Part shown: positions 30,318-56,823 of the stretch, piece by piece | Layout of the letters: each line of letters begins with the position of its first letter | How positions within the stretch are numbered: position 1 is the stretch's first letter | Source: a virus | Direction: 5' to 3' (one strand) | IMG/VR virus record: IMGVR_UViG_3300028800_000084 | Coordinates: 7,286-71,285 of that record | DNA: 64,000 nt | The notes under the pieces: model-generated | Told to the model about the DNA's origin: nothing | What the model saw: only the letters and a program-made list of their open reading frames with translations | The model's database searches: none | Program-made: the position numbers and the translations under genes

Positions 30318-31100
30318 ATGAGCAGTCGATCAATCGTACCCCAGAACCAACCAGCAGACAACCTTTCCATCGTCGTTTATCGACCAGACGGATCGGACAT
30401 CGGCATACCATTTCGCGCTGACTTGGACGAAAAACGCATGTGGGGATCACAGCGTCAGATAGCTGATACCTTGCGCGTTACTGTTCAGGCTGTCGGGCAA
30501 CAGGTCAAAAACTTCAGGGAACAGCGCGGCGACAAGGCGGAACGAAGTATAAAGAAGTTCCTTATACTTGCCGAGGATGGCAAAACGCGCGAAATCGAAC
30601 ACTACGATATGACGCTCATTGCCTATATCGGCTTCCGGTCACAGGCTACCGAAAGCGTAATCGCTTTTCAGGAATGGGTCGGTGAAGTTCTAGACAAAGC
30701 GATAGCCCCTAAGCCGATGACACAATCCGAACTCATCCTCGCTCAAGCGCAGTTCGCCGTTGAAATTGAACGGCGCGTGGCAGCACTGGAATCGGAACGA
30801 GCCGCTATACCGGCTCTCGCCAATGAAATCCAGGACATCAAGGATAAGCTGGTAGACGCTGACTATATGACCATCCGGCAGTATTGCCAGCAGCAGGGGC
30901 TACGGGTCACAGATACCGTCAAGAAAGCCTGGGGTCGGGACGCCGCCGCGCTCAGTCGGTCACAGGGCGTGCAAATTCTCCGCTTCATCGAGGGCCGCGA
31001 TAACGTCGGGCGCTACCATATCGGTATCCTGACCGCCGTCTGTGTCGCCAAGCTGAAGATCAACCCGAAGCAGTTAGGCTTGATTGGAGACGGTTCCTAG
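30318..31100 (+). CDS. Antirepressor-like protein (RhuM-like N-domain plus C-domain shared with 56065..56823)
   Basis: WGSQRQIA...AEDGKTREIEHYD...IGFRS...FQEW; C-terminal half aligns with the Bro protein at 56065. Confidence 0.75.
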   Translation: MSSRSIVPQNQPADNLSIVVYRPDGSDIGIPFRADLDEKRMWGSQRQIADTLRVTVQAVGQQVKNFREQRGDKAERSIKKFLILAEDGKTREIEHYDMTLIAYIGFRSQATESVIAFQEWVGEVLDKAIAPKPMTQSELILAQAQFAVEIERRVAALESERAAIPALANEIQDIKDKLVDADYMTIRQYCQQQGLRVTDTVKKAWGRDAAALSRSQGVQILRFIEGRDNVGRYHIGILTAVCVAKLKINPKQLGLIGDGS

Positions 31101-31448
31101 CCCTACAAACGGCTAACGAGCCGTCCCACTACCGCATCGCGCCGCCTATGCCCCTGTTTGCCCCTAAAAAGCGTGCTGGCGCTTGATGAGGCCGATGCCC
31201 AGGAAGATACCAGCGACCGCCGCCAGCACCGCTGTCACGATGTCGATGTCCTTGAAGGACAGGGCAATCAGCGGTTGCAGTGCGAACACCAGCAAGAACA
31301 AACACAGCACAATCCAGCCCCAGAATGTAAAGTTCACGATTTCAGCCTCCCCGTAAAAACAGCCACGCAACGAACCCCGCCGCAATCCAGAACGCACAGA
31401 ACAGCACGAACGCGCACGCGAGGTTCTCCGAGCGGCGGCGCGGCGCGG

Positions 31449-32312
31449 TCACGGCTTGTCGCTCGGTGCAGCGGCGTCACGGTCATCCTTCTTGTTGGCG
31501 TCATTAGCGGCGTCCGTTTGCGGCGTGTCGCCACCGGCGGCGTCCTGAGCCAGCGCGTTCAAGACACGGCTAAGTTGCTGGTTGGAAAGCTTCAACTGCC
31601 CATTGGCCGTATCGAGCGACTTCTCCACGCGCTCGGTCAGTTCGCGCAAGTCTTTGTACTGGTCGGGGACGGGCAGCACGGTATTACGGATGGTGACAAT
31701 CAGTTCTTCCAGCAAGCCCTGAATAACGACAACGCTCTCTTTCGTCTCCGATAAACTTTTTTCCAATTGAGCGTTAATGCTGTTTCCCATCTCATCCACC
31801 TTCCCCGCCACCGCCTCTATCATGGCCTCTTTCGCCTGCACCACTCCTTGCAGGACGGTTTGACTGGTCACGGCCAGCGCCGCCTGAAAGCCCACCACAG
31901 CGGTCGTCTGGTCCTGAATGCTCGTGCGCCACGCCGCCGCCTCTTTGTCGTGCGAGGCCAGTCGGTCAGCCTCGATGCCGTGTCCAATCTTCTGCTCGGT
32001 AGTCGAGGCGTCGATGGCTTTGGCGACGTTCTTCTGTTCTTCAATCTCCGTGGCGAACATCGTCAGCAGTTTTTCGATGAGGGCCGCCTGCGTCTTGCGT
32101 TCTTCCGTGGCCGCTGCCGCTTCCGCCGCTGCCAGCGCGTCGCGGTTGTCCTGTTCTTTTGTTTGGGCGTCGGTCTTTTTTTCGTTGAGAGTGTCCTGTG
32201 ACTTGCGGTGTTCGCGGCGCGTCCCGACAAATTGAAGCAGCAGCGCCGTCGGGCCGGTTGCCGACGATAGGAAAACCATCACCGCGAGTAGAACAATAAT
32301 CCAGGTTGGCAT
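31449..32312 (-). CDS. Membrane-anchored coiled-coil protein
   Basis: N-terminal hydrophobic segment followed by a long heptad-rich region. Confidence 0.6.
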   Translation of the reverse strand: MPTWIIVLLAVMVFLSSATGPTALLLQFVGTRREHRKSQDTLNEKKTDAQTKEQDNRDALAAAEAAAATEERKTQAALIEKLLTMFATEIEEQKNVAKAIDASTTEQKIGHGIEADRLASHDKEAAAWRTSIQDQTTAVVGFQAALAVTSQTVLQGVVQAKEAMIEAVAGKVDEMGNSINAQLEKSLSETKESVVVIQGLLEELIVTIRNTVLPVPDQYKDLRELTERVEKSLDTANGQLKLSNQQLSRVLNALAQDAAGGDTPQTDAANDANKKDDRDAAAPSDKP

Positions 32313-32912
32313 AGCCTCTAGTCTAACCGAACTGCCGTTCTACGTCAATCATGGTCGCTCACGTTGCCCTGCCACGACGGGTTCACGCCGTGGTCGGTCG
32401 CTTGCATGGCGCGGAACGCCACGAAGAACGTGGGCAGCGCTGCCAGCAGGTCGCGGGCGCTCGTTGACCAGATAACGCCGTCGTTGTCATATTGAATTTT
32501 CGCCGCCCGGTACAGCGCCTCAAGCGCGGGCAGGTTGAACGGCGGTTGGTCGTCGGGGTTAGTCGGCATCGTTCATGGCCTCCTGTTCGGCGCGTGGGTT
32601 GCCCCTCAGTGGACACCAGTCAGGGCGTTCGTCGCTGCTGTCGCTAATGAACCGCCCTTCGTCGGGGCGGAAGCGGCTGCTGCTGTCTAGCTGCGACGGG
32701 TGCTGGCAGAAGCGCTGGTAAACCGGGTGCAGCCCCGACTTCCACAACGTCTGTCGCCAGTACTTGCACGGGTAGCAGTGTTCAGCGGTGAATGTGTGTT
32801 TACTTGGCATGTTTCGCCCGCTTCCAGCGCCACTCGCGCCAGCGGTCTTGCGCGGTGACAACGATAATCACAAGCGCCGCGCAGACGAGAACGCCCGCGC
32901 ACAGATTGACCA

Positions 32913-33281
32913 TCACGACTGCACCTCCGCCATCTTCACGCCGAGCGCCCGACAGACCTGCTCAATCACGGCGATAGGGTCACTATGGAGCATATTGCTG
33001 GTGTAGTGTAGCACGCGCCAACCGTGCAGCACCGCATAATTTCCCTTGAAGGCGTCTCCTTCAAACCCGTAGCCCCGAACATGCCTCCCCTTGGACAGCG
33101 TGCCGCCGTCAAGTTCGACCATCAGCTTTTCAGTCTTCCATGCGAAGTCAGCAATCCATTCGCGGGCCGGTAGCGCAAACTGATATTCGCGCTCGTAGGG
33201 CGGCGCGTCGGGCGGCGCGAATATATCCCACCACGCCATGAATGCCGCTTCCAGTTCGGAAGGCTCTCGTTTTTTTCTCAT
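32913..33281 (-). CDS. PD-(D/E)XK endonuclease (DUF559/Vsr-like)
   Basis: EREYQF...W.ADFAW...VELDGG...H...D..K.N.A...GWRVLHYT. Confidence 0.8.
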   Translation of the reverse strand: MRKKREPSELEAAFMAWWDIFAPPDAPPYEREYQFALPAREWIADFAWKTEKLMVELDGGTLSKGRHVRGYGFEGDAFKGNYAVLHGWRVLHYTSNMLHSDPIAVIEQVCRALGVKMAEVQS

Positions 33282-34776: not shown

Positions 34777-35232
34777 TTACCTCGCTTTCGTTGAAATTGA
34801 AACGTTTTGCGTGCCGTGAATAATGCGCTCTAGCCGCCGCGCCTTGTACTGCCGACTGCCGTAGCGGTTGGAGCAGTACCGCGAACAGAAGCGCCGCCGC
34901 CGTCCGCCGTGGAAGCGTTCGGGGAGCGGCTTGCCGCACTCGTCACAGGTGCCGCGCTCCCGCAGGTGGCGCAGCGCCGACTGCCACAGCCACGCCCGCC
35001 GCGAGCAGGCTTTCGAGCAATATTTCCGCCGATGACCGTGGATGGGCGTGTACTCGAACCACTGACCGCACGGCGCGCAGAACTTGCGCACGGCAGCCGC
35101 GACCGTCCGGCGTTCCCGCTGGCCCTGGCGAACCATCGCCTTCAGACAGCGCAGGGAACAATATTTCGTCTCGCGGTGATAGCGCTCCGAGTAGCGCACG
35201 GGCCGGACGTGGCAGAACGCGCACAGGGTCAC
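34777..35232 (-). CDS. Zinc-finger repeat protein
   Basis: Three CxxC...(K/R)(Y/F)CSxxC units. Confidence 0.7.
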   Translation of the reverse strand: MTLCAFCHVRPVRYSERYHRETKYCSLRCLKAMVRQGQRERRTVAAAVRKFCAPCGQWFEYTPIHGHRRKYCSKACSRRAWLWQSALRHLRERGTCDECGKPLPERFHGGRRRRFCSRYCSNRYGSRQYKARRLERIIHGTQNVSISTKAR

Positions 35233-36851: not shown

Positions 36852-38657
36852 TCATTCATGGTCATTCTCCTGCCAGACCGAACCGATGTCGATGCGCGTG
36901 TGCGTCACTTTCTGGAAACCGCGCCCCGGCGAATAGAACGTTTCGATGCGCTTGCCCTGCGCGCCGAACCAGCGGTCTTTGACCAGGGTCAGGTAGGCGA
37001 GGTTCGGGTCAATCGGTTCGTCGCCCGCCTTTGGCTTGACTTGCCGCGTTTCCAGGTCGTAGCCAGGGCGATAGACAGTCAGGAACCGCGTGGCGTTCTG
37101 TTCAATCACGCCGCCGCCCTGTGCATCGGAAATCAGCGGCTCTTTGTCGGCGCGGTCGGACGGGCCGCGATTGGCCTGACAGGTTGCCACGACGAACAGA
37201 CCCACGTCCCGCACGCAGTAGCGCAGAGCGTCACAGATAGCAACCGTGCCGGGATATGTGCCCATGCCGCCTTGCGACACGTTTTGCAAGGAATCGACAA
37301 TCATGATTTTGCCGCCGCGTCCCTTGAACAGTTCGCCCGTGCGTCGGATTTTGTCGGGGTCGGGCGAGTCGTGCTTGTAGAAAGTGATAGGCATTTTTCC
37401 GGCGGCGTCATAATGCTTGAAAATGCCCGCGCCCGCCTGTCCCGTGAAAATGTCGCGGGCGTTAATGCCCTGCATGTAGCTAACGATGCGATGCGTGTAC
37501 CATTCCGGCGTCATTTCGGTGGTGAACACGAGTACCGGCGCTTGCTTGGCGAACTCAATAGAGAACTGCATTGCCAGCGTGGACTTGCCCGCGCCCGTCC
37601 GCCCCAGAACCATCAGCAGGTCGTTGGACAGAAAGCCGCCGGTCGCTTCATCCAACTCCTGCACGCCAGTCTGATAGCCTCGAATAGCCTTTGGCGTTTG
37701 CGCCCACGCTTCCGCTGTCCCTTTTGCCGTTGCTGCCACGTCGGACATACCAATCAAGTCCTCCTCCGGTTTCACGACGGTTACGGTAGGTCGGGGCGCT
37801 GGTGAACGAACCACTTCCGGCGCGAACGGCTGCGCCCGTCCTTTTTCCAGGCCGCTGCGCACGGTCAGGTCAATCTCGTGGTCAGTCAGGCCCAGGCCGC
37901 GCCCCTCGGCGGTCAGCACGTCCTCCGCTTCGCCCGCGTCAAGATTACCCGCGCCGACCAACTTGCCGAGGATGAAGGCCGCTTTGTTCAGTTCATTGTT
38001 GCGCTGCCCTTCGGAGGCTGTTCGCAGTTTGGCGATGGTGTTGTCGATAGTTGCCCGCGTCAGGCGTCCGCTGGACAGAGTGAGCAGCGGGCGCGGCGGC
38101 ACGACGACTGGCTCCGGCTTGAGCAGTTTAAGCAACCAGTCCGGGGCGTCCACCGGCTCCGCTTCCTCAAATGACACTTTCCAGGCATAGGACGCACCGG
38201 AGGGATGGATTGACGGTGGGGCAACCACATAACCACCATCGCCGCGAAAGTCCAGACCGGGCAACTTTCCGGCGAAGTTATGAACCTCAAATCCGGGATG
38301 CTTGAAGTAAATGTGCTGCCCTTTGCCAGTCGAGCCAGTCGGCGTTTGTGGCACGCCGCCGCGTTCCTCCACCGCCTTCAACCCTTCGGCGCTATCCACG
38401 TCCAGGACGACTACGCCCGACACGCGCCCGGTGACGAGGCCCACGTTGCCTTGCGGACAGTCGGCCCACCAGGTGAGTATCTGGTCGCTGTCAGCCCGCT
38501 GCGTCTGGTAGGGTATCCAGGTTGCCTGCCCGTCGGGGGATTTAGGCAGCAGTGCGGCGTTGGGTCGCTTGTCGTGCGGCTGCAAGGGAATGACCGATAG
38601 CCCGCGCTTTTCGTAGGCAAAGGCTTGCGTCAGAGGGTCGGTCGCCAGATTAATCAC
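36852..38657 (-). CDS. Prim-Pol primase fused to DnaB-like helicase
   Basis: NVGLVTG..VVVLDVD, TGKGQHIYF, DFRGDGGYVVAPPS.H; GRTGAGKST Walker A, IVDSLQ, QANR. Confidence 0.92.
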   Translation of the reverse strand: MINLATDPLTQAFAYEKRGLSVIPLQPHDKRPNAALLPKSPDGQATWIPYQTQRADSDQILTWWADCPQGNVGLVTGRVSGVVVLDVDSAEGLKAVEERGGVPQTPTGSTGKGQHIYFKHPGFEVHNFAGKLPGLDFRGDGGYVVAPPSIHPSGASYAWKVSFEEAEPVDAPDWLLKLLKPEPVVVPPRPLLTLSSGRLTRATIDNTIAKLRTASEGQRNNELNKAAFILGKLVGAGNLDAGEAEDVLTAEGRGLGLTDHEIDLTVRSGLEKGRAQPFAPEVVRSPAPRPTVTVVKPEEDLIGMSDVAATAKGTAEAWAQTPKAIRGYQTGVQELDEATGGFLSNDLLMVLGRTGAGKSTLAMQFSIEFAKQAPVLVFTTEMTPEWYTHRIVSYMQGINARDIFTGQAGAGIFKHYDAAGKMPITFYKHDSPDPDKIRRTGELFKGRGGKIMIVDSLQNVSQGGMGTYPGTVAICDALRYCVRDVGLFVVATCQANRGPSDRADKEPLISDAQGGGVIEQNATRFLTVYRPGYDLETRQVKPKAGDEPIDPNLAYLTLVKDRWFGAQGKRIETFYSPGRGFQKVTHTRIDIGSVWQENDHE

Positions 38658-39733
38658 ATCGGCCTCCATTCGGCGGTGTTCGGGTCGCGCTGTTCGCGCA
38701 CGCCGTTTGTCTCTCGATACCAAAAACTCGTATTCTCATCGAACCATGTGCGAGGCTTGCTTGGGTCAAGCGGTGGCGCAGCGGGATGCTCGGCTAACCA
38801 CACGCCGATGTTCGATGCGACGTGCGAGAAGGGAACCATCTTGCCTGCCCAGAACCGCGTTCCGTTTTTGTCCGTCTCGGCCAGCTTTGCTTTGACAAAC
38901 CGCGCCACATCGTCCGCCGTCACGCCGCTGGCGGCCAGGGTGAGCGCCGCCGTCACGTTGGCTGTCACCGCATCGACGCCCCAGGCGGGCGTAAACCGGC
39001 CCGGATGGGACGCACCCCATGTGTGGTAAAGACTAGCTGCCAGGGTCAGAGAGGCAGGCGTAACGCCGTCGTGAACGAGCTTGGACGTGAAGCGCATGTA
39101 CGAGCCGTAAGCAAAACCGGGCGGGAGTGTTTCTTTGCCAATGGTTGCAATCCAGGCGTCGAGCAGTTCGGCTTGCGGTTGGGGCTTGCGCTTTGGCGGT
39201 TCGTCAACCCGCTCCGCGTTAGCGGTTGCGGGAAGAGAGTAGTCTATGCTAGTGCTCTCTGTATATAGTATTTTACCCTTTGGGGAAATTGCATTTTGAC
39301 CTTTGGGGAAATTAGAAGCGCTTCCCATTTTGACCTTTGGGGAAATTGAGAACTGGTCAAATAACGGTAAAAACCCAGACCAATTGATGCGAATATGCTT
39401 AGTCGGCTTGCTTCCGAAATGGTACAACGCCGTGATGATCAACTGCTTCTTTTCTAGAATAATCAGAGCGCGGTCAAGTTGCTTTGGCGTAACTCTGATT
39501 TCGTTCCACCACTCGGTGCGTTTTTTGGCGATCCATAGTTCCCCGTCATGGCTGACGGACAATTTCGTTACGCCGTTTCGTCCCGGCAGATGCCAATAGA
39601 CGATCTGACTCAGCACCAGACCGGCGATTAAGTCGCCCGCCATATCAATGTAGGCTTTTTTGAAGTCGATGGTGTCCCGTGACGACTGCTCCCAGTTGAG
39701 GAATCTCGCAACTAGCGGATCGACTTCGCTCAC
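38654..39733 (-). CDS. Replication initiator (winged-helix, O-like)
   Basis: LSQIVYW...WIAKKRTEW..E wHTH motif; internal iterons; sits upstream of the primase-helicase. Confidence 0.8.
   Translation of the reverse strand: MSEVDPLVARFLNWEQSSRDTIDFKKAYIDMAGDLIAGLVLSQIVYWHLPGRNGVTKLSVSHDGELWIAKKRTEWWNEIRVTPKQLDRALIILEKKQLIITALYHFGSKPTKHIRINWSGFLPLFDQFSISPKVKMGSASNFPKGQNAISPKGKILYTESTSIDYSLPATANAERVDEPPKRKPQPQAELLDAWIATIGKETLPPGFAYGSYMRFTSKLVHDGVTPASLTLAASLYHTWGASHPGRFTPAWGVDAVTANVTAALTLAASGVTADDVARFVKAKLAETDKNGTRFWAGKMVPFSHVASNIGVWLAEHPAAPPLDPSKPRTWFDENTSFWYRETNGVREQRDPNTAEWRPM
39270..39347. repeat. Three iterons, putative replication origin
   Basis: ATTTT(ACC/GAC)CTTTGGGGAAATT at ~39270, 39293 and 39327, next to an AT-rich tract. 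Confidence 0.8.
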
Positions 39734-39795
39734 AGCACGCCGCCATTAATAAAGTTTAATTTGCCGATAGAATCCGAACGTGGTAAACTGTTCAT
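39730..39795 (-). CDS. 21-aa leader peptide coupled (GTGA overlap) to the initiator
   Basis: MNSLPRSDSIGKLNFINGGVL* with SD GAGGAGG. Confidence 0.6.
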   Translation of the reverse strand: MNSLPRSDSIGKLNFINGGVL

Positions 39796-39866
39796 TGTTG
39801 CGTCCTCCTCTGACGCTACAAAGCGGTGCGCTCGAACGTGTCAGGCGTTCGGGCCGCTTTGTTTAT
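39761..39866 (+). ncRNA. Candidate antisense RNA (with promoter) against the initiator leader
   Basis: TTGCCG-17-TAAACT with extended TG. The RNA contains TCCTCCTC (anti-SD) and ends in an ACAAAGCGG...CCGCTTTGT hairpin followed by TTAT. Confidence 0.6.
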
Positions 39867-40239
39867 AGGATAGGTGTGATCTTACCTCATCTTCGCTCAT
39901 CGCGCTACCACAGCTTCGCTTGCGTCGGGCGCTTGCTCGGCGGCGGCACGTTCTCGCGCCTAAATTCCGTAATCTCATCGTCGTGCCACGTAGACGAGCA
40001 ATCGGGGCAGAACCACAAGTCAGCGCTCGGTCGCCCGTCGTCGTCGTTCGGCACGATGAGACGCCCGCCACAGTTCGGACAGATGTAGGGTTTTCTTTTG
40101 GGTCGGTATGGGGTAGAATTGAACATGATACGCTCCTTTACAGCGTAGCCAGATAGTGGAAGCCCGCGCCAGCGGGTTTTTCCATGTCAGGCGTAGAAGA
40201 TAGGCTTCATTCTAACATTTTTAGCCGCCGTTGGCAACG

Positions 40240-40920
40240 TCAACCAATCCACTGAATGCCATGCTCAACAAGATAGCGCTTCATATCCCGCCGGAACGCC
40301 CACGCGCCCTGCCGCTTGACGGTCTTGCGGCAATTGGTGAACAACTGCCCGTGCCAGATATCCAGGTGCGGCTCGTTCTTGTCGGGGTTCGTCCACAGGT
40401 CGTACCAGCCGCAATCGAACCGCTGCCGGTTTTGCGCCGTCCACGTCAAGGCGTCGGCCTCAATGATGGTCAATCGCTCCGTCGGCATGAACGGCCCGAC
40501 CAGTTTCAGCACGTCAGGTGAGTTCTCGATGCACGTCACATGCTCTACGTTCTGGTTAGCCAGCAGCCCGCGTACCACGCAGCCCAGGCCCAGGCCCGCC
40601 ACCAGCACGCTCCCGCTGGCCTGCATGACAAAGCCCAAGTGCGTCCGCAGTTCGAACGGCGTATCCTCCATGACCACCGCGCCGGGCTGTTCGTCGTAGA
40701 GCGTAGCCTCAGTGAGAAAGCGCAGATAAGTGTACGTGCCGCGCGGTAGGTGAACAGGATACCCATGTCGATTGGTAACGGTGTCTTTGGCGAGCGTCAG
40801 TTTTTTCGTGAACCACAGATTCGACCACGCCGCCGGGATTGCGTCGGCTTTCATGACTGCGAGATAGTCATTCACGTCGCCACCTGCCGCGCCACGTACC
40901 AGCGCTCCCAGGCGCGGCAC
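40240..40920 (-). CDS. Spermidine-synthase-like SAM-dependent methyltransferase fold protein
   Basis: VMEDTPFE, VLVAGLGLG, VTCIE.SPDV, IIEADA, WYDLW. True start probably ~40875. Confidence 0.75.
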   Translation of the reverse strand: MPRLGALVRGAAGGDVNDYLAVMKADAIPAAWSNLWFTKKLTLAKDTVTNRHGYPVHLPRGTYTYLRFLTEATLYDEQPGAVVMEDTPFELRTHLGFVMQASGSVLVAGLGLGCVVRGLLANQNVEHVTCIENSPDVLKLVGPFMPTERLTIIEADALTWTAQNRQRFDCGWYDLWTNPDKNEPHLDIWHGQLFTNCRKTVKRQGAWAFRRDMKRYLVEHGIQWIG

Positions 40921-42300
40921 GCGGCCAGCGCCAGACCCGTCACGTCGTCTGCTCCCTCGTGGTAGCGCCCGCCGCTGTTTGGCGTCAGGTCAACGCCCAC
41001 GCTACCATCGCCGTAGATGGTAATTTCGAGCTTCGCCTCATTGCGCAGCGGCAGTGTCAGGGTGTCTCTCAAGTCGGCGCTGTAGCGTGGCACAAGCATC
41101 CACGTCGTTCCATCTGGTCGCGTACCAACCAACCCTTCACCCATTTCCTTAACGTCCGTCCAGCCGAGCAGTTCAGCTATGTGCCGGTCGAGCGCCGCGC
41201 CCGCCGGTTCTGTCGTCCAGTCTGTTGACATTTTCACCCCTTCAGGTGTACCCTGTTCATGTATGCTCTCGATAACCGCAAGCCGAGCGCCACGTGTAAC
41301 CCCTTCGACGTGGCGCTCGTGCGTCTAGCGCTCCAGCGCGTGGACGGACAGGCGGCGCTTGGCGCGGGCGGGCACGAGGTCAGGCGTCTTGTTCATCGGG
41401 CCACAAGTCCTTAATTGCCTCGAAGTCGAAAAACCCTTCCCACTCACTCCGGTACAGTGCGCAGTACTTGTTGCAGCATTGGAACAACGTCCCGGCAGGC
41501 GTCTCGCCCTGGTACAGCACCTTGCCGCCGTGACACACCGGGCAGCGCGGCGGCAAGGTGAACGCCATGAGCAGCAGCATCCAGAATGACGGCGAGTGCC
41601 GGTTCACGTTGCGGGCGGGCGCGAGGGAAGTCATCATTGCTCCCTCTGATTCGGATAATGTCGGTCTACCCATTCTCGAATAGCTGGACGTAAATCAACG
41701 CCCGCCCAAAACACAAGGGTGTCATCCGATACCCAAGCTCCGCCGGTAATCTTCTGTGTCGGGTCAATTTCAGGGTAGGCGTGGTACAGGTCGCCTAGCA
41801 TGGCCGCGTTATCGCTGGTGACAAGAACTCCATCACTGAATACGTTGTGTTCGTCCGAAAATCGCCAGTAGGTACCCCCGTCGGCGTCGGGAACGCCCTG
41901 CGGCTCCGTGTCACGCCCGCAGTTGGGGCAGCCAATCCCTTCCGGTAATGCGTCGTTCATGACGGCTCTGGAAACGGGTCGCGCCCGCTGCTGTCGCTGT
42001 TCAGCCAGTCTTGCCAGCGGATTTCATCGAACGAGGTAGGGTGCAGCGCAGCTTCAGCGTTCATCCAATAATACTCCGGGTCGCAGGGGTCAGGGTCAAC
42101 GTTACGAGCCAGCAGTCGAACCTTAATATCGGTGTATTCAATGTAGCGGCGATGCTGGCGAAACAGAGCGGACTTCGCTTTGCCCGACGTTTCGGCCACG
42201 ATAAGTTCAATCGCGTAATCGTCCACCAGCGGCCCGCCAAGTTCGGGGTCGATGGCTTCCACGTGTTCAAAAGGGCCGCCGTCTACCACGTATAGGTTGT

Positions 42301-42711: not shown

Positions 42712-42713
42712 AG

Positions 42714-44672: not shown

Positions 44673-45111
44673 TGCGGTTCGCCTCCGCGAGGGCCGCGCG
44701 ACCCTTATCCGTGATGTAGAGATCGGCGTTGATAAGATTGCGTCCTCGCAGGTCATCCACACGGTTCGCTACAACGTTGCTGTGTGTTGAATGCCCAGGG
44801 TCGATGCAGACGTAGTTTCCACTGAACAGGCGATGCGCTAACCGCCAACCGTCCACGAGCTTTTGCAGTAAGCGCTTGTCGGAAACGCTCAGCGCCTTGC
44901 CCGCTGGCGCGTCCGCTTGCGCCGGGGCGACGGGCGGCTCGACGATGCTGGTCGGCGCGTCCCAGTCCGTCCGCGTGACCACTGGCCCCCACGGGGTTGG
45001 GTCTTGCGCCATCCTCTGCAATTCGTACAACTTGGTCATAGCCTCTATCGGGCTAAGCTCGTCAATCTTCATGTCCCGCAGGAGTTGTGTTATACTTTGC
45101 TCGTTCGTCAC
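44665..45111 (-). CDS. Protein with MutS C-terminal-domain-like N-terminus
   Basis: LRDMKIDELSPIEAMTKLYELQRMA resembles the MutS CTD (L..L..D.L(S/T)P.EAL..LY.L). Confidence 0.55.
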   Translation of the reverse strand: MTNEQSITQLLRDMKIDELSPIEAMTKLYELQRMAQDPTPWGPVVTRTDWDAPTSIVEPPVAPAQADAPAGKALSVSDKRLLQKLVDGWRLAHRLFSGNYVCIDPGHSTHSNVVANRVDDLRGRNLINADLYITDKGRAALAEANRNG

Positions 45112-45163
45112 GTTCGTTCTCCTGGCCCGGCGCGAACCGGGCCTTCCGCGTTCTCGGTCGATG

Positions 45164-45895
45164 TTAAGCTGTCCCCAAATTGCCGATCATGGCGGACAGA
45201 TGCCTTGCTTGCGCATCCCTAGCCGCATCCCAAGCCGCATCCCAAGCCGCACCCCTAGCCGCATCCCAAGCCGCACCCCTAGCCGCAGCCCTAGCCGCAG
45301 CCCAAGCCGCACCCCAAGCCGCATCCCTAGCCGCATCCCTAGCCGCACCCCAAGCCGCATCCCTAGCCGCATCCCTAGCCGCACCCCTAGCCGCATCCCT
45401 AGCCGCATCCCAAGCCGCATCCCAAGCCGCAGCCAAATCTTTATCAGTCGCTTTGCTGTCAAGCCACAACCGCTTGACCTCTATTGCCTTCCAGCAGGCC
45501 ACGTCAGGTTCGCGTCCTGCATTCCGCTCGTTCGTAAGCGCGCCTTCGGCGCACCAACAGGCGAACTCGTGCAACGTGCGCGTCCCGTCAACAAGCGACA
45601 AGCACGTTCGGTTACTGGCGACCAACTTATCACCGCCCCGCTGCACATCCCCCCACATGGCGACCCGCTGTACCATCGCCCCTGGTGCAAAACCGAGTGC
45701 GTCCATGATGTTGATGCTGGCGTGATAGCCGTGACTGCACAGCACAACCGGCGGCTTGACTTTCATCGTCTTGCCGACGACGGGGCGTTTTCCTTCATCG
45801 TTAGCAGTCAGGCCATTATCTGGTAAAAAGTGCCACGCGATAATGGCGTCTTTGCGAGGAACGAAAGTGGAGGTATCATTGTTTTTGTTGCTCAA
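45164..45895 (-). CDS. Conserved phage protein with AA(W/R)(D/G) repeat tail
   Basis: LCSHGYHAS...DALGFA...DKLVAS.R motif followed by the repeat tail. Confidence 0.75.
   Translation of the reverse strand: MSNKNNDTSTFVPRKDAIIAWHFLPDNGLTANDEGKRPVVGKTMKVKPPVVLCSHGYHASINIMDALGFAPGAMVQRVAMWGDVQRGGDKLVASNRTCLSLVDGTRTLHEFACWCAEGALTNERNAGREPDVACWKAIEVKRLWLDSKATDKDLAAAWDAAWDAARDAARGAARDAARDAAWGAARDAARDAAWGAAWAAARAAARGAAWDAARGAAWDAAWDAARDAQARHLSAMIGNLGTA
45211..45433. repeat. 12-bp tandem repeat array
   Basis: About 18 units of GCCGCA(T/C/G)CCC(A/T)A. Confidence 0.95.
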
Positions 45896-45963
45896 TTCCT
45901 AATCCTTTCTGAGTGACCGCCCTGTTCTCGCAGGGCGTTTCGCGTTCTCGGTCGATGTACATA

Positions 45964-45992
45964 ATGTTACCGCGTAGTAAGTTTCTTGTCAA
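45964..45992 (-). promoter_or_regulatory. Sigma70-type promoter
   Basis: TTGACA-17-TAACAT on the minus strand. Confidence 0.7.
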
Positions 45993-46232: not shown

Positions 46233-47216
46233 TTAGCCATTGTAGATGTACTCCACGGTGCGGGTCGCTTGAGGTACTCCGAATTTGATAAGCTTGTAGT
46301 CCTCTAGCGCCTTGACGGTTGACGCTTGAATCCAGCGGACGTGATGGTTTCTCGCGTCGTACAGGTCGTGTCCGCCGCGCCGATTGAGAATAATCTTGCC
46401 GCCCTCCTTCAGAACATCCAGCGCCTCCCGCTGTGCCTTCGTCAGCGCCTTGCCCGCTGGCGCGTCCGCTTGCGCCGGGGCGACGGGCGGCACAAGTGAT
46501 TGCACGTCCTCGCTATCGAGCATAGGGGCAACTGCGCCGTTATCCCATTCAACCTTGAGTAGCCATTGCATACCGCTCAAGTGAAGCTCTTTCACGGTTC
46601 CTGCTTTCCAGGGACGGAATTTACTTTCCACGCGGTCGCCTACCTTGAACGGGACGTTCATCATCTTCGAAATCACCAGCCCGCTCTCCCACAGATGGTT
46701 TTTATTCCACTGACCCTCGGAGATTTTCAAATCGTGCAGAAAATCGTCGTTGCCGATGCGGTCGTAATCGCCGTCGCCTACGTAGACGAGTTTGCACGGA
46801 CTCACCGAGTAGGTGTGACACGTCGGGCAGTACATCGCTTGCCAACTCGTGCGCCGTACCACTTCGCCTGCTGGACGCGGCGGATAGTCGCCCGTTGGAA
46901 CAAGGATTTCCTTGCGGCACATTCCACACTTCGGACATTCGGCGTTGCCGTAGCCAGTGAACGTGCCACACGGTGACTTAACGCTGTCACCGAACGGCAA
47001 ATCGTCCGCCGTGTCCGCCGTCCCGTTCCGCTCGGCAAGCAGCAGGTCGATGATGTTGCGTAGCGTAGAGATATGTTCGACTGCCTCGCGGAAGTCGTCG
47101 TGTACATTACCCACCTGAGTAGCGCCCCATGCGTCGATGCTGTCAAGCGAACCTTGAATGTCGTCCAGCGCTTGACCGTCCGCCGCTTTTGTTGTATGCT
47201 CACTCGTGCTTTTCAT
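46233..47216 (-). CDS. Multidomain hypothetical protein (zinc ribbon, SH3-like, C-terminal wHTH-like)
   Basis: CPKC/CPTC, FKVGDRV...GTV, LTKAQREAL. Confidence 0.6.
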   Translation of the reverse strand: MKSTSEHTTKAADGQALDDIQGSLDSIDAWGATQVGNVHDDFREAVEHISTLRNIIDLLLAERNGTADTADDLPFGDSVKSPCGTFTGYGNAECPKCGMCRKEILVPTGDYPPRPAGEVVRRTSWQAMYCPTCHTYSVSPCKLVYVGDGDYDRIGNDDFLHDLKISEGQWNKNHLWESGLVISKMMNVPFKVGDRVESKFRPWKAGTVKELHLSGMQWLLKVEWDNGAVAPMLDSEDVQSLVPPVAPAQADAPAGKALTKAQREALDVLKEGGKIILNRRGGHDLYDARNHHVRWIQASTVKALEDYKLIKFGVPQATRTVEYIYNG

Positions 47217-47595
47217 TCTTTGCTCCTGTTCTCGTGACGCCTCGGCTTCGGTCGGGGCGTTGCTCTTTGTTCGATGTTAGGCCGTTTCCAGGCTGATGAC
47301 ATAATCAATTAGCTCCTGCGTGGGGTCGTCCGCCTCGTCAAAACTTTCGCCCCACTCCTCAATGTCGCGGCGGTCGCCAAACTCCGCAAAGCCTTCTGGC
47401 TCAACCATCAAGCGGTCGTAGGGTTTCAGGATAATGTCGCTGCCCTTTGTCCACGGGCGAACGGCGTAAATTCGGACGGTGGGCCACGCTTCGCGGTCGG
47501 TCGTCACTTCGCGGCAAGCTTTATTGCGGGCTACTTCGCTGTTCAGGAAATCTCCGAGGTTCACGTTTGTCTCCTCTCGTTCGTTCGATGTGTTC

Positions 47596-47973: not shown

Positions 47974-49556
47974 GATTGACTTACCCTCCTCCACGCCGTC
48001 TCAGCGTTCTGCTTTGCCTCGTCCACGTCCATCGCCTCGCCCTGCGCCACCGGCCCATCGCCCCGGCGCAAGTCCCACACGAACCAGTCGCCGCTCGCCC
48101 CGTGGACGATGAGGACGTAGCGCGGGTTATCGTCAATGAGAACGCTGGCTGAGTACACGTCGTCGGTAGTGTGCAACCAGGGCGTCATCGTTCATCCTTC
48201 CCCGTCGCGGCGAGCAGCACCAGCGCCGCCGCCAGGGTCGCCTCCAACTCGTCCACGCGCTGTTCAAGCGCTTCTATGCGCCGGTACACGTCCTGCATCG
48301 TCGTCGGGCCAGCGGTGGACGCGAGTGTGAGGGACGCCAGCGGCACATGCGCCCGTCTGCCGTCGCTGTCCCAGACGACCCAGGCCCGATCAGCGAGTAG
48401 GTCAACGCCCGCCGCATCGAACACGCCCGTTCCGTAGATTTCGTGCTGAACCTTGTTGCCAGGGCTGAACTGGACGTTCATCGTTTACCGTCCATCCAAC
48501 GGATAAACAGGCTCGCTCCCAGAGAGAGCAATAGCCAGAAAAGGACAATGAGCAACGAGGGCGGTGTGTGCGTCAAAGCGCTGCTCACTATCCACGTCAT
48601 AACAAAACAGAAAACTGCGAGAAAGCCATACCATATGGCGGGAAGCCGCTTAACGTTCATGGCGTATGTTCCTCATTGTGCCGCGCCAGCAGGTCAGCCG
48701 TGCGCTGTGCGGCCAGGGCGTTGTAGTCCAGTAGGTCGGACGGGTCGGCAGGCGTATAGTGCGGGTTATTTTCACGGATATATTGTTCCTCGTATGCTTC
48801 CGCCAGTTCCGCCCGCGCCGCGTCCCGTTCCCGCGTCAGGGCGTCCACCAGGGCGAGCAGGTTAGCTACGTGTTCGGGTGCGTGAGCAATGAACTCGGCG
48901 TCATCAACGTTGTACACCTGAGCAATCAGAGTACCGCCACCCACCACGGCAACCTCAACCCATTCACCGCCGTGTCCTCGCGGTGCTGGACGGGTGTCCC
49001 AGATGTCAGTTCCCAGAGCATCTAGCTCTGCTACAATTTCCGCCACGTCGGTCATTTCGCCGCCTTCGACTTTCGCTTACCCATCGGCGGCTTGTGTGGC
49101 TTGCCTAGAATGTAGGCGATGTCGAGTTCGCAACGGGCGAGAAAGCTGTCGGCTTCTGTCAGTGCCGCCGCCAATTCTTTGCGCTCCTTGTTTATTTTGA
49201 TGCGGTTGAGAAGGACGCATAGCAACGTTTCTCGGCTTCCAATCTCGTTGTAATCCAGGTTGCTGTTGTAGTTGTGTTTTGCGACCCGGACGATGAGAAG
49301 CTGATAATCCAGTTCATCGAACGTCATGTCCAGGTACGTCTCGATAGGCGGTAGTGTCACTTTATTTTCTTCTGCCACGGTTCCTCCCTGTGAAAACACA
49401 CGTCCATTCGCGGCGGCCTGTCGGCCCGCTCCAGCACGCAACCGACAGACCAGTACTCGGCAATCTTCAGCGCCGTCGCGTCCCGGCGGGCGGGGTCGGC
49501 GTCCAGCACCGCCAGCACGCAACCACAGCAGGGACGGCGCAGCACCCACACGGCGC

Positions 49557-51792: not shown

Positions 51793-52635
51793 TCACGTTC
51801 CCTTCTTTCGTTCCGCGCTCGGCTGCGCTACGTAGGCGGCCTCTGTTGGGCATAGCCCCTTCTTTCTGAGTTTGTCGAAAAACTCATCAACCTGTTTCAT
51901 GATAGTTGTCGCGGTGCCCTCTCCGCATTTCTCGCACAGCCATTCGTAAGCGTCTTCGTCATTTTTGCTGCTGCTGCAAGCTCGGCACATGGGAACGATG
52001 TTTGTTGGGATTGTGCCAGGGCAATCCGCATCTTGAATGGAAATCCAATGGTCTTTTACGAGCGGCTTCTCCTTTCTGCATACCACACAGCGATACCCAA
52101 AATAAGCACAAGCGTATAACCAGTCGTCTTTTGTCAAAGTGTGAGGTAGCTCGGCTTTGCGCCTGTACCTTTGCAACATTGCGGCGTTTCGTATTTCTGG
52201 GTGCGTACGGCGCCACTCCGCAACCATTTTCGTATTGCACGCATGACATCTTGAAGGAAACCACTTCCCGTCCCTGTAGTACCCGACAAAGAATTCTTTA
52301 GTTCTCGGAAATACACCCTTGCAGTCGGGACACTTTTTAAGCCCCGCTTGCCGAAGCTCGTGCGCCTCCTTTAGTTTCGGGTGAGCGTCAAGGTATCGTT
52401 CTCTATGCGCCCTTTGGTGTCTGGCGATAGATTCTGGTTTCGGAGGATGGTTTTTGTAACGTTCTCTCGAATATGCGCGTCCTTTCTCGGTGTTAGCCTC
52501 TGCGCGTCTACATTCATTACAGTCTGGACGCAGGCCGTATTTGCCGTGCTTGTTGGGCGTAAAATACCCCCTGGTTGCCGGTAGCTCTCGGTGGCATTTC
52601 GTACAGACTTTTGTCAGGATGTCAGCGCTTATCAT
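51793..52635 (-). CDS. HNH endonuclease (third paralog, co-oriented with its operon)
   Basis: Two zinc fingers, LPHTLT..DW, CVVC...DHWI...NIVPMCRACSSSK. Confidence 0.85.
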   Translation of the reverse strand: MISADILTKVCTKCHRELPATRGYFTPNKHGKYGLRPDCNECRRAEANTEKGRAYSRERYKNHPPKPESIARHQRAHRERYLDAHPKLKEAHELRQAGLKKCPDCKGVFPRTKEFFVGYYRDGKWFPSRCHACNTKMVAEWRRTHPEIRNAAMLQRYRRKAELPHTLTKDDWLYACAYFGYRCVVCRKEKPLVKDHWISIQDADCPGTIPTNIVPMCRACSSSKNDEDAYEWLCEKCGEGTATTIMKQVDEFFDKLRKKGLCPTEAAYVAQPSAERKKGT

Positions 52636-52804
52636 TATCTATGCGCTCCCATTTAACTACCTTGCGGTAGCCGTTCCGCTTGAGAACGTACCGCACGTTA
52701 TATTCGTGCTCTCCCGCCATACGCGCTACGTCAAATACGGTATGCCCATTGTTGAGCAAATCTACAACCCACTCAATTTTCAGCTTTGTTCGCGTTTTTG
52801 CCAT
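52622..52804 (-). CDS. Small HTH protein at a divergent promoter region (Cro-like position)
   Basis: GHTVFDVARMAGEHEYNVRYVLKRNG. Confidence 0.6.
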   Translation of the reverse strand: MAKTRTKLKIEWVVDLLNNGHTVFDVARMAGEHEYNVRYVLKRNGYRKVVKWERIDNDKR

Positions 52805-52840: not shown

Positions 52841-52869
52841 TTGCGCAAAAAGCAATCCCCGATTATACT
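52841..52869 (+). promoter_or_regulatory. Rightward promoter in the divergent control region
   Basis: TTGCGC-17-TATACT. Confidence 0.6.
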
Positions 52870-52915
52870 CAGGCGTAGTATCAAGTTTTGTCAACACACG
52901 AAAGGACGTTCAATT

Positions 52916-53410: not shown

Positions 53411-53413
53411 GCT

Positions 53414-53731: not shown

Positions 53732-53736
53732 AGATC

Positions 53737-54639: not shown

Positions 54640-54848
54640 ACGTTTAGTAGGCAAAGGAAACCTGACGACCATTCTTTTTGTCATCGGCACATGGTTGTCG
54701 TTTCGAACAGCAGCAATAGCTCTGATGGGGGATCGCCTTCAACTATCGGATGTCGGTTTCTACATCACCGTAATTATAGGAATGTGCATTGTGCTGTTCG
54801 ATGAGTTGTGGACTTCACCGCGCACGCATAAAATGTTTGAGGCTGAGC

Positions 54849-54995
54849 ATGTGCGCGATGTGGCAGATGGCGGCGGCGGGCTTGGACGCAGCGTATGACG
54901 GCGTGCTGTACGTGGGCGACCGATCGGAGGACGAGCGAGCGGCACTGGACGCCGACGTATCGTTCGAGTGGGCAACGGACTTCTTTGGAGCGTAG
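54849..54995 (+). pseudogene. C-terminal remnant of a HAD-family phosphatase
   Basis: LYVGDRSEDERAA..ADVSFEWA.DFF (HAD motif IV) with no upstream DxD motif. Confidence 0.5.
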
Positions 54996-55480
54996 CGCCC
55001 GCACACGACGCGGGAGGGGAGCGAGGGACGATGGACGAACGAGAACGGATTGAGCGTGCAGTGATAACAGCGCTGGCCTTTGGCGGAGACGGCGACGCTC
55101 TCGCGGCGGGTCAGTCGCGGCGCATTGCCGCAAGGATTGCCAACGCTCTAGTCGCCGCCCCACGCGACACCTGGGCGGCGACGTTCGATGCGCCGCCCGC
55201 GCCCGCGTGGTCATCCGAGTGGCCCACCGAACCGGGCTTCTACTGGTTCTACGGCGAACTTACACCGAGCGCTCCGAAACGAATGACCGTCATGGCAGTT
55301 CGACCAGCCGAGGGCGAAGGATTACCGCTACCGGTCTACGGCGTGGACGTGTTCGGCTTCGACAAGCGTTTCTGGCAGTTCGAGGGCATGAGCGGCCTGT
55401 GGCTGCCCGCTACGCTGCCACCGACGCCCTAGCGCTCTAGGGTGTATGCACTGCATACGTCCTTGTGCTAGAATAGTCCC

Positions 55481-55753
55481 GTGCGTGGAAAGTTAGCTCA
55501 GAGGCAGCGATCTTCTAACGAGTGGGTGACAGCCCAAAGTGACATAGGGAGTTGGCTACGACACTCCCCTTGAACTGCTGTTGAAGCGGAACACAAGTAG
55601 CCTCAAGAGTCGATAACGCTCACGGACGGCACGGGGAAACCGACTTTGCAAGTAACCCGACCGCGAAGGCAAGCGACCACGAGAAAACGTTGCAAGGCGG
55701 AAGTCGGGCGAAATGACCAATAGCCCTTTGGCGTAGCAGCACACCACGCACGG
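55481..55753 (+). ncRNA. Candidate structured non-coding RNA
   Basis: Extended -10 TGcTAGAAT; closing helix CCGTGCGTGG/CCACGCACGG; several internal hairpins; no credible ORF. Confidence 0.55.
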
Positions 55754-55796
55754 CACCGACCGCCACGAGCCGACAATCGCAGCGGAGCATGATCAC

Positions 55797-55832
55797 GAGC
55801 GGGGCTACCTACGCGGGACGGCCCCGCTCTTT
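55797..55832 (+). terminator. Hairpin terminator
   Basis: GAGCGGGGC...GCCCCGCTC followed by TTT. Confidence 0.6.
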
Positions 55833-55836
55833 GCTG

Positions 55837-55929
55837 TCAACCCGCCGCGTGCAGCACGAGCGCCACAGCCAGCGCCAGCCCGATGACGACACCGAGCGCG
55901 AACCAACTGAGCGCTTGACGACGCGACAT
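55837..55929 (-). CDS. 30-aa single-TM peptide
   Basis: MSRRQALSWFALGVVIGLALAVALVLHAAG; SD GGAGG; upstream extended -10 TGcTACAAT. Confidence 0.6.
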   Translation of the reverse strand: MSRRQALSWFALGVVIGLALAVALVLHAAG

Positions 55930-56064
55930 GTGCGCCTCCGTAGAACGATGGGCGGGATTGTAGCACCGAACGGCGCTATGAGATATAATTAACCCTAATG
56001 CTAAACGCAAAACGCCGGGGCATGAATCCCGGCGCAATGCTTGTCATGAAAGGTAGGCACTTCC

Positions 56065-56823
56065 ATGAGCAATAACGCTCTAATCATACCTGATAACCCC
56101 CAATCCGACAATTCTTTCCATTTCGAGTTCAACGGCATACCTTTTAACGCTATCATAGGGAACGACGGCGACCCGTGGTTTTACGCCACGGACGTATGCA
56201 AAGCATGTGAGATTGACAACGTGTCTCAGGCGGTTTCTCGGCTAGATGAGGACGAAAAAGCCACTATCATTTCAAATGATACAGGGCGCTCGCATCTGAT
56301 GGTCAATGAGCCAGGGCTTTACGCCTTAATTGGTAGTAGCCGTAAAAAGACATCGAAGAACTTCAAGCGGTTCGTTAACCATGACGTTATGCCCGCACTC
56401 CGCAAGCGTGGAACCTATAGCATCAAGACGCTAAGCCCTGCTGAGATGCTTGTGGCCCAAGCTCAGCAAATGCTTGACCACGAACGACGGCTAGAACGCC
56501 TTGAAGCAGAATCGGCGGCGGTTCCTCAACTGGCAAACAAAATTGCGGACATCAACAACCGACTTGCCGACAGCGAGTTCCTGAGTATCTTACTGTGGTG
56601 TAAGACACAGAACATCAAGGAAGGGTTGCAGAGCGTGGCGCTACGGACGAAATGGGGCAAGGAGTGTGCGGAGTACAGCCGGACGAACGGCGTCCCGATT
56701 AAGAAGGCACTGGACGAACCGCACGCGCCCGGTCGGTATCATATCAGTGTGCTCAGCGCAGTGTGCAAGCCGAGGTCGTCCGTGCCGAAGCGGCAACTCG
56801 AACTTCCGACGGGAGGGAAGTAG
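56065..56823 (+). CDS. Bro-N antirepressor
   Basis: DPWFYATDVC...RLDEDEK...VNEPGLYALI..SRK...FKRFV.HDVMPALRK.G.Y. Confidence 0.92.
   Translation: MSNNALIIPDNPQSDNSFHFEFNGIPFNAIIGNDGDPWFYATDVCKACEIDNVSQAVSRLDEDEKATIISNDTGRSHLMVNEPGLYALIGSSRKKTSKNFKRFVNHDVMPALRKRGTYSIKTLSPAEMLVAQAQQMLDHERRLERLEAESAAVPQLANKIADINNRLADSEFLSILLWCKTQNIKEGLQSVALRTKWGKECAEYSRTNGVPIKKALDEPHAPGRYHISVLSAVCKPRSSVPKRQLELPTGGK

Follow-up and report, generated by a model that had tools for sequence, protein, structure and literature searches.

The locus considered here raises the question of whether promoter-like sequences lying in the first codons of several phage genes, and pointing back across the starts of these genes, direct the synthesis of small antisense RNAs. 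The analysed stretch of DNA (the window; 64,000 nucleotides, nt) comprises bases 7286–71285 of the linear, 71,285-bp IMG/VR record IMGVR_UViG_3300028800_000084, which has a G + C content of ~58% and a CheckV completeness of 63% and represents an uncultured soil phage whose DNA is present in rhizosphere metagenome runs. An earlier note had described about eight genes with such promoters, each followed by a hairpin, as a genome-wide set of cassettes for one repeated design of antisense RNAs against ribosome-binding sites (RBSs). According to the present analysis, the early and regulatory part of the genome at 26–56 kb contains small convergent transcription units, five to seven of which are well formed among approximately ten candidates. 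These units probably encode, with an estimated probability of about 0.6, cis-antisense RNAs resembling the sar RNA of phage P22, which have a predicted length of ~50–75 nt and would lie over the Shine-Dalgarno (SD) sequence and start codon and block ribosome binding. The term “genome-wide” was too wide, as all sites fall within 26–56 kb of the incomplete record and none is located in a structural gene.

The eight −35/−10 pairs quoted in the earlier note, numbered here s1 to s8 by position (30333, 39761, 40091, 41225, 45068, 45852, 47172, and 56083), were all recovered with their coordinates, strands, and spacers. Promoters were scored by a weight matrix of E. coli-like sigma-70 frequencies with spacer penalties and a TG bonus, which may not match the preferences of the host. 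Intergenic sense promoters reach 13.5–16 bits on this matrix (for example TTGCCA-17-TGtTAGAAT at 40237..40209), and the phage thus clearly uses host sigma-70 promoters. The antisense sites score 10.7–12.7 bits, so that all eight rank within the top 0.03% when the 142,570 positions of the 71-kb record are ordered by score. As plain hexamers they match weakly (8–9 of 12 positions), and matches of at least 8/12 are common (1.66 per kb per strand); chance was therefore expected at first, but the matrix-based results contradicted this expectation. A hexamer rule of 9/12 is passed by four of the eight sites (s4 at 41225 is not among them) and by an additional site, x49, which is described below, and a separate promoter scan also lists s6, s7, s8, and x49.

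The gene map was obtained by a self-trained codon and RBS caller and hand-corrected in four places, with genes 45164..45895 and 34777..35232 being added and two weak calls on the plus strand removed. The set of 120 genes used for the 8-of-12 rule and for the codon-permutation and resampling nulls lacks 51793..52635 and contains the doubtful gene 52622..52804; the core-pattern count given below used the corrected gene list. Antisense sites of at least 10.5 bits with the −10 box in nt +1 to +20 were present in 7 of the 120 genes. Position-preserving codon permutation between genes, which works column by column and retains the A+T-rich composition of 5′ ends, yielded 1.07 ± 1.01 such genes with a maximum of 5, and synonymous resampling with 5′-end codon usage yielded 1.00 ± 0.85 with a maximum of 4; in neither case did any of 1000 runs reach 7. 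The scoring of gene 5′ ends against codon-shuffled controls, which the earlier note had proposed, hence revealed enrichment. At a threshold of 9.5 bits the record contains 78 positions, 25 of them antisense within genes, and 8 of these 25 have a −10 box ending at +7 to +19; the +1 to +20 interval accounts for 2,400 of 64,806 coding nt, and two sense-strand matches of at least 9.5 bits fall into the same start-proximal interval. The parameter-free core TTGNNN-N16-18-TANNNT occurs five times in antisense orientation in these 2400 nt, versus 0.77 predicted by its frequency within gene bodies (P = 1.2e-3), with −10 boxes that end at +16, +16, +17, +17, and +19.

The −10 ends fall into two classes, one at +16 to +19 (genes 26142, 30318, 44665, 45164, 46233, 48657, and 56065) and one at +7/+8 (two leader open reading frames, ORFs; gene 39905; and a weak site on gene 45967). 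The placement within the first ~15 codons described earlier holds for six of the eight sites, which lie in codons 1–16 of the main ORF, whereas those at 39761 and 41225 are situated upstream of the main start in leaders of 21 and 8 amino acids (aa), respectively. In 17 other loci (333 kb with 438 called genes, P22 included) a rarity-matched threshold gave 4 matches in the +1 to +20 bin and 1–6 per later bin; the record studied here has, in the same binning, 7 in the first bin versus 7 in the next fourteen bins together. Among 51 non-redundant loci of Bro-N homologs from IMG/VR, 4 carry a top-0.1% antisense match near the start, with ~2.1 expected; these counts led to rejection of the idea that Bro-N genes are generally associated with antisense promoters. 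At s2, s3, s5, s6, s7, and x49, between 0.1 and 2.5% of synonymous recodings reach the observed score, and the hexamers use rare codons (such as ATA, GTA, CTA, AGA, and TTA) with a share of 0.03–0.13 among synonyms, which points to selection on DNA and not on protein. The non-random placement of the sites is confirmed.

A scan for hairpins with T tails revealed 22 intergenic terminator candidates, many of them oriented against the neighbouring genes. Seven antisense-facing intergenic terminators (26067, 30184, 39825, 40162, 41354, 47234, and 56012) are preceded, 25–150 nt upstream on the same strand, by a promoter scoring 10.5 bits or more. The chance of such a promoter is 0.039 per terminator, and the binomial probability of 1.9e-6 was computed at 7/17, the true denominator being 15 since the terminators at 55797 and 60758 are sense-facing; of the five sense-facing terminators printed, none has such a promoter. 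Three of the antisense terminators (39830, 47234, and 56035) are also listed by a separate terminator scan. The hairpins start 28–48 nt after the −10 box at seven of the eight sites, in line with the 25–60 nt claimed earlier, but the hairpin belonging to 30333 is 109 nt away. Several hairpins are strand-specific, with energies in antisense versus sense orientation of −20.2/−12.0 kcal/mol at s2, −17.2/−6.8 at s4, −21.1/−9.6 at s7, and −17.5/−14.9 at x26, another additional site; G-U pairs in the hairpins of s2, s4, and s7 become A-C mismatches in the mRNA. The hairpins at s1, s5, s8, and a third additional site, x58, differ little in stability between the two strands. T tails are located on the antisense side at s2, s3, s4 (second hairpin), s7, s8, and x26. 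Eight of the ten predicted RNAs fold better than shuffled sequences (z −2.6 to −7.5), and at s2, s6, s8, and x58 an anti-SD sequence is exposed in the loop of the 5′ hairpin. No hairpin sequence is common to all sites.

These signals, from which we infer both the production of the RNAs and their repressive effect, suggest the following mechanism. A moderate sigma-70-type promoter on the opposite strand, within approximately codons 3–16 of a protein gene or a short leader ORF, would start transcription at about +9 to +12 of the ORF (−10 end at +16 to +19) or at the start codon (−10 end at +7/+8, as in P22 Psar). Antisense transcription would run back over the start codon and the SD sequence and stop at an intrinsic terminator whose stability and U tail are predicted for the antisense strand only, ~8–20 nt short of the sense start at genes with a promoter of their own (s3 and s6). 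The resulting RNA of 59–74 nt (two sites: ~136–150 nt) would show full complementarity to the region of translation initiation, often with the anti-SD in its 5′ loop. With starts derived from the −10 boxes, the predicted RNA ends would cover SD and start codon at s1, s3, s5, s6, s7, and s8 and the leader SD at s2, but not at s4. Such an RNA, made constitutively, would pair with the mRNA, beginning at the anti-SD loop or the terminator loop, and ribosome binding would be blocked; cleavage of the duplex and interference between the promoters facing each other would probably accompany this block. Each gene would in this way come under threshold or delay control, the putative targets being two Bro-N antirepressor paralogs, the replication initiator, and several genes without known function. 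At the initiator, the block on a leader peptide may be passed on by translational coupling, by analogy with hok/mok/Sok.

That both antirepressors are targeted, as previously proposed, is supported by homology, which identified gene 56065..56823 as Bro-N/Ant antirepressor-like and gene 30318..31100 as its paralog (28% identity, E 6e-30). On the former, the minus-strand promoter of s8 (TTGTCG-17-TATGAT, 56083..56111, 12.3 bits) occupies codons 7–16 with its −10 end at +19; the predicted RNA of ~74 nt (56003..56076, z −4.35) has an anti-SD loop, UGCCUAC, in its 5′ hairpin and would end at a terminator at 56035..56012 (minus strand) that is followed by TTTGCGTTT. Its predicted 3′ end falls within the sense transcript, ~7–12 nt past the start of the latter. 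On the paralog, the promoter of s1 (TTGTCT-17-TACGAT, 30333..30361, minus strand, 11.0 bits) spans codons 6–15 with the −10 end at +16 and a predicted transcription start at ~30326, and converges with the plus-strand sense promoter of the gene (TTGATT-16-TATACT, 30226..30253, 13.5 bits). The only candidate stop for the s1 RNA is the distal hairpin at 30182..30224, a 20-bp stem that serves as plus-strand terminator of the upstream operon and looks bidirectional but lacks a U tail on the minus strand; the predicted RNA is accordingly ~150 nt long. Both promoters have 17-nt spacers, and they agree in 10 of 12 hexamer positions and 10 of 17 spacer positions.

The initiator gene 38654..39733 (minus strand), predicted to be DnaD-like/O-like, is likewise a putative target as claimed, although through a leader ORF and not the main ORF. 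This leader (39730..39795, minus strand) encodes 21 aa (MNSLPRSDSIGKLNFINGGVL, followed by the stop codon), has the SD sequence GAGGAGG, and ends in a TGA that overlaps the GTG start of the initiator at 39733. The plus-strand promoter of s2 (TTGCCG-17-TGgTAAACT, 39761..39789, 12.6 bits) lies inside the leader with its −10 end at +7 of this ORF. The predicted RNA of ~71 nt (39796..39866, plus strand, z −4.3) has a 5′ hairpin loop, CUCCUCU, opposite the leader SD, and the terminator hairpin at 39825-39858 (plus strand) is followed by TTGTTTAT. The leader-coupled layout, with the leader stop over the main start and the antisense RNA over the leader RBS, is thus present at s2 in the form of predicted elements. 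Within the initiator gene, a 22-nt iteron (CATTTTGACCTTTGGGGAAATT) occurs three times, once at 86%, at 39269-39347, a region that probably is the replication origin by analogy with lambda O/ori. At s4, the plus-strand promoter TTGACA-18-TACCCT (41225..41254, 11.7 bits) has its −35 box over codons 1–2 of gene 40872..41231 and its −10 end at +7 of an 8-aa leader ORF (41234..41260, minus strand; MNRVHLKG and stop); both leaders end in GTGA over the main GTG. The predicted RNA of s4 measures ~136 nt (41261..41396, plus strand) and contains an internal hairpin at 41285-41318 and a terminator at 41354-41388 followed by TTGTTC, and its fold is weak (z −1.7).

A canonical terminator was found at s3, where GCCCGC-GCCA-GCGGG at 40162-40181 (plus strand) is followed by TTTTT. 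The promoter of this site (TTTTCT-17-TAGAAT with a weak −35 box, 40091..40119, plus strand, 10.7 bits) covers codons 3–12 of a 73-aa zinc-ribbon gene (39905..40126) with the −10 end at +8, a score reached by 0.1% of synonymous recodings. The predicted RNA of ~59 nt (40126..40184, plus strand, z −3.1) would start on the ATG at ~40126. The 16.0-bit sense promoter of the gene (TTGCCA-17-TGtTAGAAT, 40209..40237, minus strand) has a predicted start at ~40202, ~20 nt past the 3′ end of the s3 RNA. Both s6 and s8 are built like s3. The s6 promoter (TTGCGA-16-TATCAT, 45852..45879, plus strand, 10.8 bits, recoding P 0.009) occupies codons 6–15 of gene 45164..45895, whose TTG start is uncertain, and has its −10 end at +17. 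The RNA predicted here (~64 nt, 45886..45949, plus strand, z −4.25) carries the anti-SD in its 5′ hairpin loop, and its hairpin at 45918-45937 is followed by TTTCGCGTTCTC; the sense promoter TTGACA-17-TAACAT (45964..45992, minus strand, 15.3 bits) would start transcription at ~45957, ~8–16 nt past the 3′ end of the s6 RNA. Gene 45164..45895 also contains a 12-nt tandem repeat (45176-45487, with a 108-nt unit registered in 18 overlapping copies), so that its protein carries a long repeat of four residues, which explains why the caller missed this gene.

At s5, the promoter TTCATG-17-TGtTATACT (45068..45096, plus strand, 12.1 bits, recoding P 0.005) lies in codons 6–15 of gene 44665..45111 with its −10 end at +16; the predicted RNA of ~50 nt (45103..45152, plus strand) ends in a hairpin at 45124-45143 with an interrupted T tail (TTCCGCGTTCTC), an atypical terminator. 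The promoter of s7 (TTGACC-17-TATGCT, 47172..47200, plus strand, 12.7 bits) likewise occupies codons 6–15, here of gene 46233..47216, with the −10 end at +17, and its predicted RNA of ~66 nt (47207..47272, plus strand, z −4.9) lies inside an operon. The s7 terminator at 47234-47263 (plus strand) consists of 13 pairs, four of them G-U, with a C(UUCG)G loop and is followed by TCTTTGTT; it is stable only as plus-strand RNA. The sites s5, s6, and s7 share a module of 18–21 nt beside the hairpin and may therefore have one origin. This module includes a perfect 18-nt repeat (45147-45164 and 45941-45958; 0.07 expected by chance) separating the antisense hairpin from a TAACAT −10 box, which at 45964-45992 belongs to the strong sense promoter and at 45161-45166 is without a −35 box. 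In the same neighbourhood, a perfect 50-nt repeat (44889-44938 and 46442-46491) encodes the peptide PPVAPAQADAPAGKAL in two otherwise different genes, and the starts of the genes that follow the repeats are also similar (44658-44689 and 46226-46257), which looks like a local module duplication or recombination.

Three additional sites had not been listed before. Gene 26142..26396 carries two overlapping antisense promoter matches of 13.7 and 8.8 bits (x26; 26067..26184, minus strand), namely TTGGTT-16-TAGACT with its −10 end at +16 and TAGACT-17-TGgTACAAT with the −10 box at 26139..26134, and the terminator at 26097..26067 (minus strand) is followed by TGCTTTGT; the RNA starts predicted here lie at ~26150 and ~26127 (minus strand). 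Site x49 (TTCCCA-16-TGcTACAAT, 49010..49037, plus strand, 11.6 bits, recoding P 0.002) lies in codons 7–16 of gene 48657..49055 with the −10 end at +19 and comprises a promoter only, as the upstream gene overlaps and a terminator is lacking. At x58, a terminator at 58356..58327 (minus strand) followed by TTTCGGTT is located directly 5′ of a helicase/methyltransferase gene (58381..60735). The region of x58 (58327-58430) further contains a weak antisense promoter, TTGGAC-15-TAATCT, in the first codons, and the predicted RNA of 79 nt has the anti-SD in a loop (z −3.9).

Taken together, the single repeated design of 50–75 nt proposed earlier is supported in silico by placement, promoter–terminator coupling, strand-specific hairpins, and the P22-like geometry, but does not fit 30333, with its ~150 nt and missing U tail, or 41225, whose ~136-nt RNA would miss the main RBS. 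Several further points weigh against the interpretation as sar-like antisense RNAs. The RNA of s4 covers the upstream region of the leader only and cannot reach the main RBS, and the RNA from one of the x26 promoters would miss the main RBS as well; the s5 fold is not distinctive (z −0.5), the −35 boxes at s3 and s5 are poor, the terminators of s5 and s6 are atypical due to interrupted tracts, s1 has no U tail, and x49 no terminator. The loose rule of at least 8/12 shows a modest excess (12 genes versus 5.9 ± 2.3, P = 0.01), and with the full set of 117 loose terminator calls, intragenic ones included, 9 of 42 promoters have one downstream versus 4.2 expected (P = 0.02). The +1 to +20 interval was picked after the sites of the earlier note had been seen, the matrix frequencies are E. 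coli-like, and the gene starts stem from a crude self-trained caller. Nor are all sites independent, with s1 and s8 residing on paralogs and s5, s6, and s7 sharing their upstream module; collapsing related sites leaves ~5 independent events at 10.5 bits, which equals the maximum in 1000 permutations. The hexamer agreement of s1 and s8 is not clean DNA-level conservation, because most synonymous recodings of the encoded peptide still give 8–10 bits (P 0.08 and 0.18) and protein homologs retain its “IVP” motif as well. More generally, antisense promoters in bacteria are, according to one account, often non-functional noise and antisense transcription is pervasive and rarely conserved (PMC3419515).

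Three other explanations have to be weighed against this background. The main rival, unlikely yet deserving consideration, is that promoters and terminators are real and the RNA incidental, with control exerted at the DNA level by occlusion, collision, or “sitting duck” interference and with the terminators insulating upstream genes or promoters. Such a scheme would fit s1, s3, s6, and s8, where a sense promoter faces the antisense one with ~66–80 nt between the predicted starts, the insulator-like position of the antisense terminators 8–20 nt before the sense start at s3 and s6, and the failure of the RNAs of s4 and of one x26 promoter to reach the main RBS. However, no sense promoter of at least 9.5 bits is located near s2, s5, or s7, and hence there is nothing close to interfere with at these sites; moreover, the anti-SD sequences in hairpin loops and the position of the predicted RNAs over the exact ribosome-binding region fit RNA–RNA pairing, as does the precedent of P22 sar. 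Chance combined with composition, by which AT-rich 5′ ends with rare codons would produce promoter-like strings next to ordinary intergenic hairpins without any regulation, appears rather improbable. It would account for the weak and frequent plain-hexamer matches, the twofold excess under the loose rule, and the reduction of independent events by paralogy, and is in line with the A+T content of the first 10 nt of genes (52% versus 40–44% further in) and with the pervasiveness of antisense transcription. Yet the codon-composition and protein-preserving nulls never attain the observed count (0/1000 each), neither the 438 control genes nor the 51 Bro-N loci exhibit a peak, there is no sense-strand excess, the coupling of promoters and terminators has a P of ~2e-6, and the hairpins are strand-specific.

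A very improbable alternative holds that the conserved feature resides in the sense mRNA, where 5′ untranslated hairpins with the SD in the loop would be operators for a phage translational repressor or elements of processing or stability, and the likeness to antisense promoters would be a by-product. The complements of the predicted 5′ hairpins would indeed place the SD in the loop and the start codon in the stem, s5, s6, and s7 share the motif beside the hairpin, and four hairpins (s1, s5, s8, and x58) are of similar stability on either strand. This explanation leaves unaccounted for the enrichment of −35/−10 pairs at 16–18 nt spacing in coding sequence, the T tails on the antisense side, and the G-U pairs that would be A-C in the mRNA at s2, s4, and s7, and the lack of a hairpin sequence common to the sites also argues against it.

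Single cis-antisense RNAs over an RBS are textbook knowledge, with sar, SymR, Sok, RNA-OUT, and CopA as examples. In the CopA/tap/repA system of IncFII plasmids and the RNA-OUT/RNA-IN system of IS10, a short constitutive antisense RNA covers the leader or RBS of an initiator or transposase, and its promoter lies in the 5′ coding region. The sites described here resemble these systems in their convergent promoters with short overlap, and the initiator likewise has its three 22-nt iterons; they differ in the phage context and in the presence of many cassettes per genome, and a relationship at the sequence level is not expected. In the annotation of P22 (BK000583), ant starts at 15091, the sar promoter occupies 15097..15125 on the other strand, and sar extends over 15090..15021 with the terminator at 15021..15058. 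As a positive control, the matrix recovers the experimentally known Psar with 8.5 bits and a −10 end at +7, less rare than any of the eight sites analysed here. As in P22, where an opposite-strand promoter in the first codons of the antirepressor gives an RNA of ~70 nt that crosses the RBS of ant and reaches to an intrinsic terminator beside the upstream gene, s8 has the signals for such an RNA, namely a promoter at 56111..56083 in the Bro-N gene and a terminator at 56035..56012. Sites s2, s3, and s4 have their −10 ends placed as in Psar, whereas most of the other sites would start 9–12 nt inside the ORF, and the design recurs on ~8–10 genes that are mostly not antirepressors. A search of the whole window against Rfam by cmscan at gathering score gave no match, also not to the P22 sar family RF00262, and at E ≤ 1 the regions 39600-47400 and 55400-56200 gave only a chance match to the sX6 terminator; the cassettes are therefore not members of the sar RNA family, although they would work like sar.

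The SymR gene lies on the strand opposite to symE, where the RNA spans both the start codon and the RBS; SymR is described as blocking translation, and Sok as blocking the leader ORF mok, whose translation hok requires (PMC4147584). The overlap of the leader stop with the main GTG at s2 and s4 and the position of the s2 antisense RNA over the leader SD resemble hok/mok/Sok; in contrast to both of these systems, the targets here are not known toxins but proteins of 73–359 aa with unassigned or replication functions. For P22, four antisense RNAs against regulatory genes are reported (sas, oop, 23as, and sar; PMC13397905). These differ in geometry (3′-end overlap, internal, or C1-activated), whereas one stereotyped 5′-end geometry is seen here. 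A literature search at the level of titles and abstracts, and as such a weak negative, found no report of a repeated 5′-end antisense cassette across many genes of one phage.

The structural genes of the phage lie on the minus strand up to ~24 kb and are followed by an early block on the plus strand at 25.9–31.1 kb. A long minus-strand block at 31–52 kb contains the initiator, the primase-helicase (36852..38657), and methyltransferases, and the plus-strand block starting at 52.9 kb includes the Bro-N/Ant gene. In homology searches most of the remaining genes had no match to anything of known function, and the “host-interference genes” named as targets in the earlier note are accordingly unsupported. 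The same applies to the “distributed RNA immunity layer” postulated there, as nothing shows lysogeny and neither a PF00589 integrase nor a PF01656 ParA was matched in the 63%-complete record. Megablast and blastn searches found no close relatives among GenBank phages apart from one 190-nt match at 73%. In IMG/VR, the best matches to four queries (a protein of 652 aa, the primase-helicase, Ant, and the product of 20245..21915, presumably the large terminase) were partial, at 28–53%, and profile scans with an alignment of the primase-helicase against contigs from metagenomes, viruses, and genomes gave matches of ≤55%; the nearest primase-helicase homologs at the protein level have identities of 71 and 57%, and an Ant homolog has 50%. 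Contigs from four DNA runs that cover 39000-57000 are near-identical to the window, with no listed variant inside any cassette. The runs listed for 39600-47400 include no RNA data set.

Three other features of the window were observed apart from the cassettes. A gene-free gap of 880 nt (25053-25932) has strong divergent promoters with −10 boxes at 25077 (minus strand, 15.4 bits) and 25161 (plus strand, 15.0 bits), includes long hairpins at 25327-25409, and adjoins a gene for an Arc-like small repressor (24810..25052); this gap may be the main switch region. An HNH/endonuclease VII-like gene (51793-52635, minus strand; phrog_1035, E 5e-21) overlaps ORFs favoured by the caller. Between two minus-strand structural genes, a hairpin with T tails on both strands (15316-15351) may be a bidirectional terminator, and no promoter of at least 10.5 bits was found near it.

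A bolder interpretation, to be regarded as tentative and doubtful at present, is that one portable 5′ module serves as a general RNA-level gate on approximately ten early genes, including the antirepressor paralogs and, through its leader, the initiator. The early programme would then be largely set by constitutive cis-antisense RNAs rather than by protein repressors, and the tight placement of the −10 end (+16 to +19 in seven genes and +7/+8 in four) would reflect a functional rule for the reach of the RNA into the ORF. Such a module would begin with the sense promoter and the antisense terminator, continue with an SD exposed in a hairpin loop and the start codon, and close with an antisense promoter at codons 4–15. 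If the interpretation as antisense cassettes is true, the stereotyped cassette, repeated on eight to ten genes that are unrelated, would represent a modular, reusable regulatory part, with promoters systematically written into N-terminal codons and paid for in codon choice. It would also offer a rule for uncultured phages without RNA data that can be applied to sequence alone, namely a strong antisense promoter with its −10 end at +7 to +19 together with an antisense-only terminator upstream of the SD, and the cassettes are short enough for trial as synthetic parts in a laboratory host.

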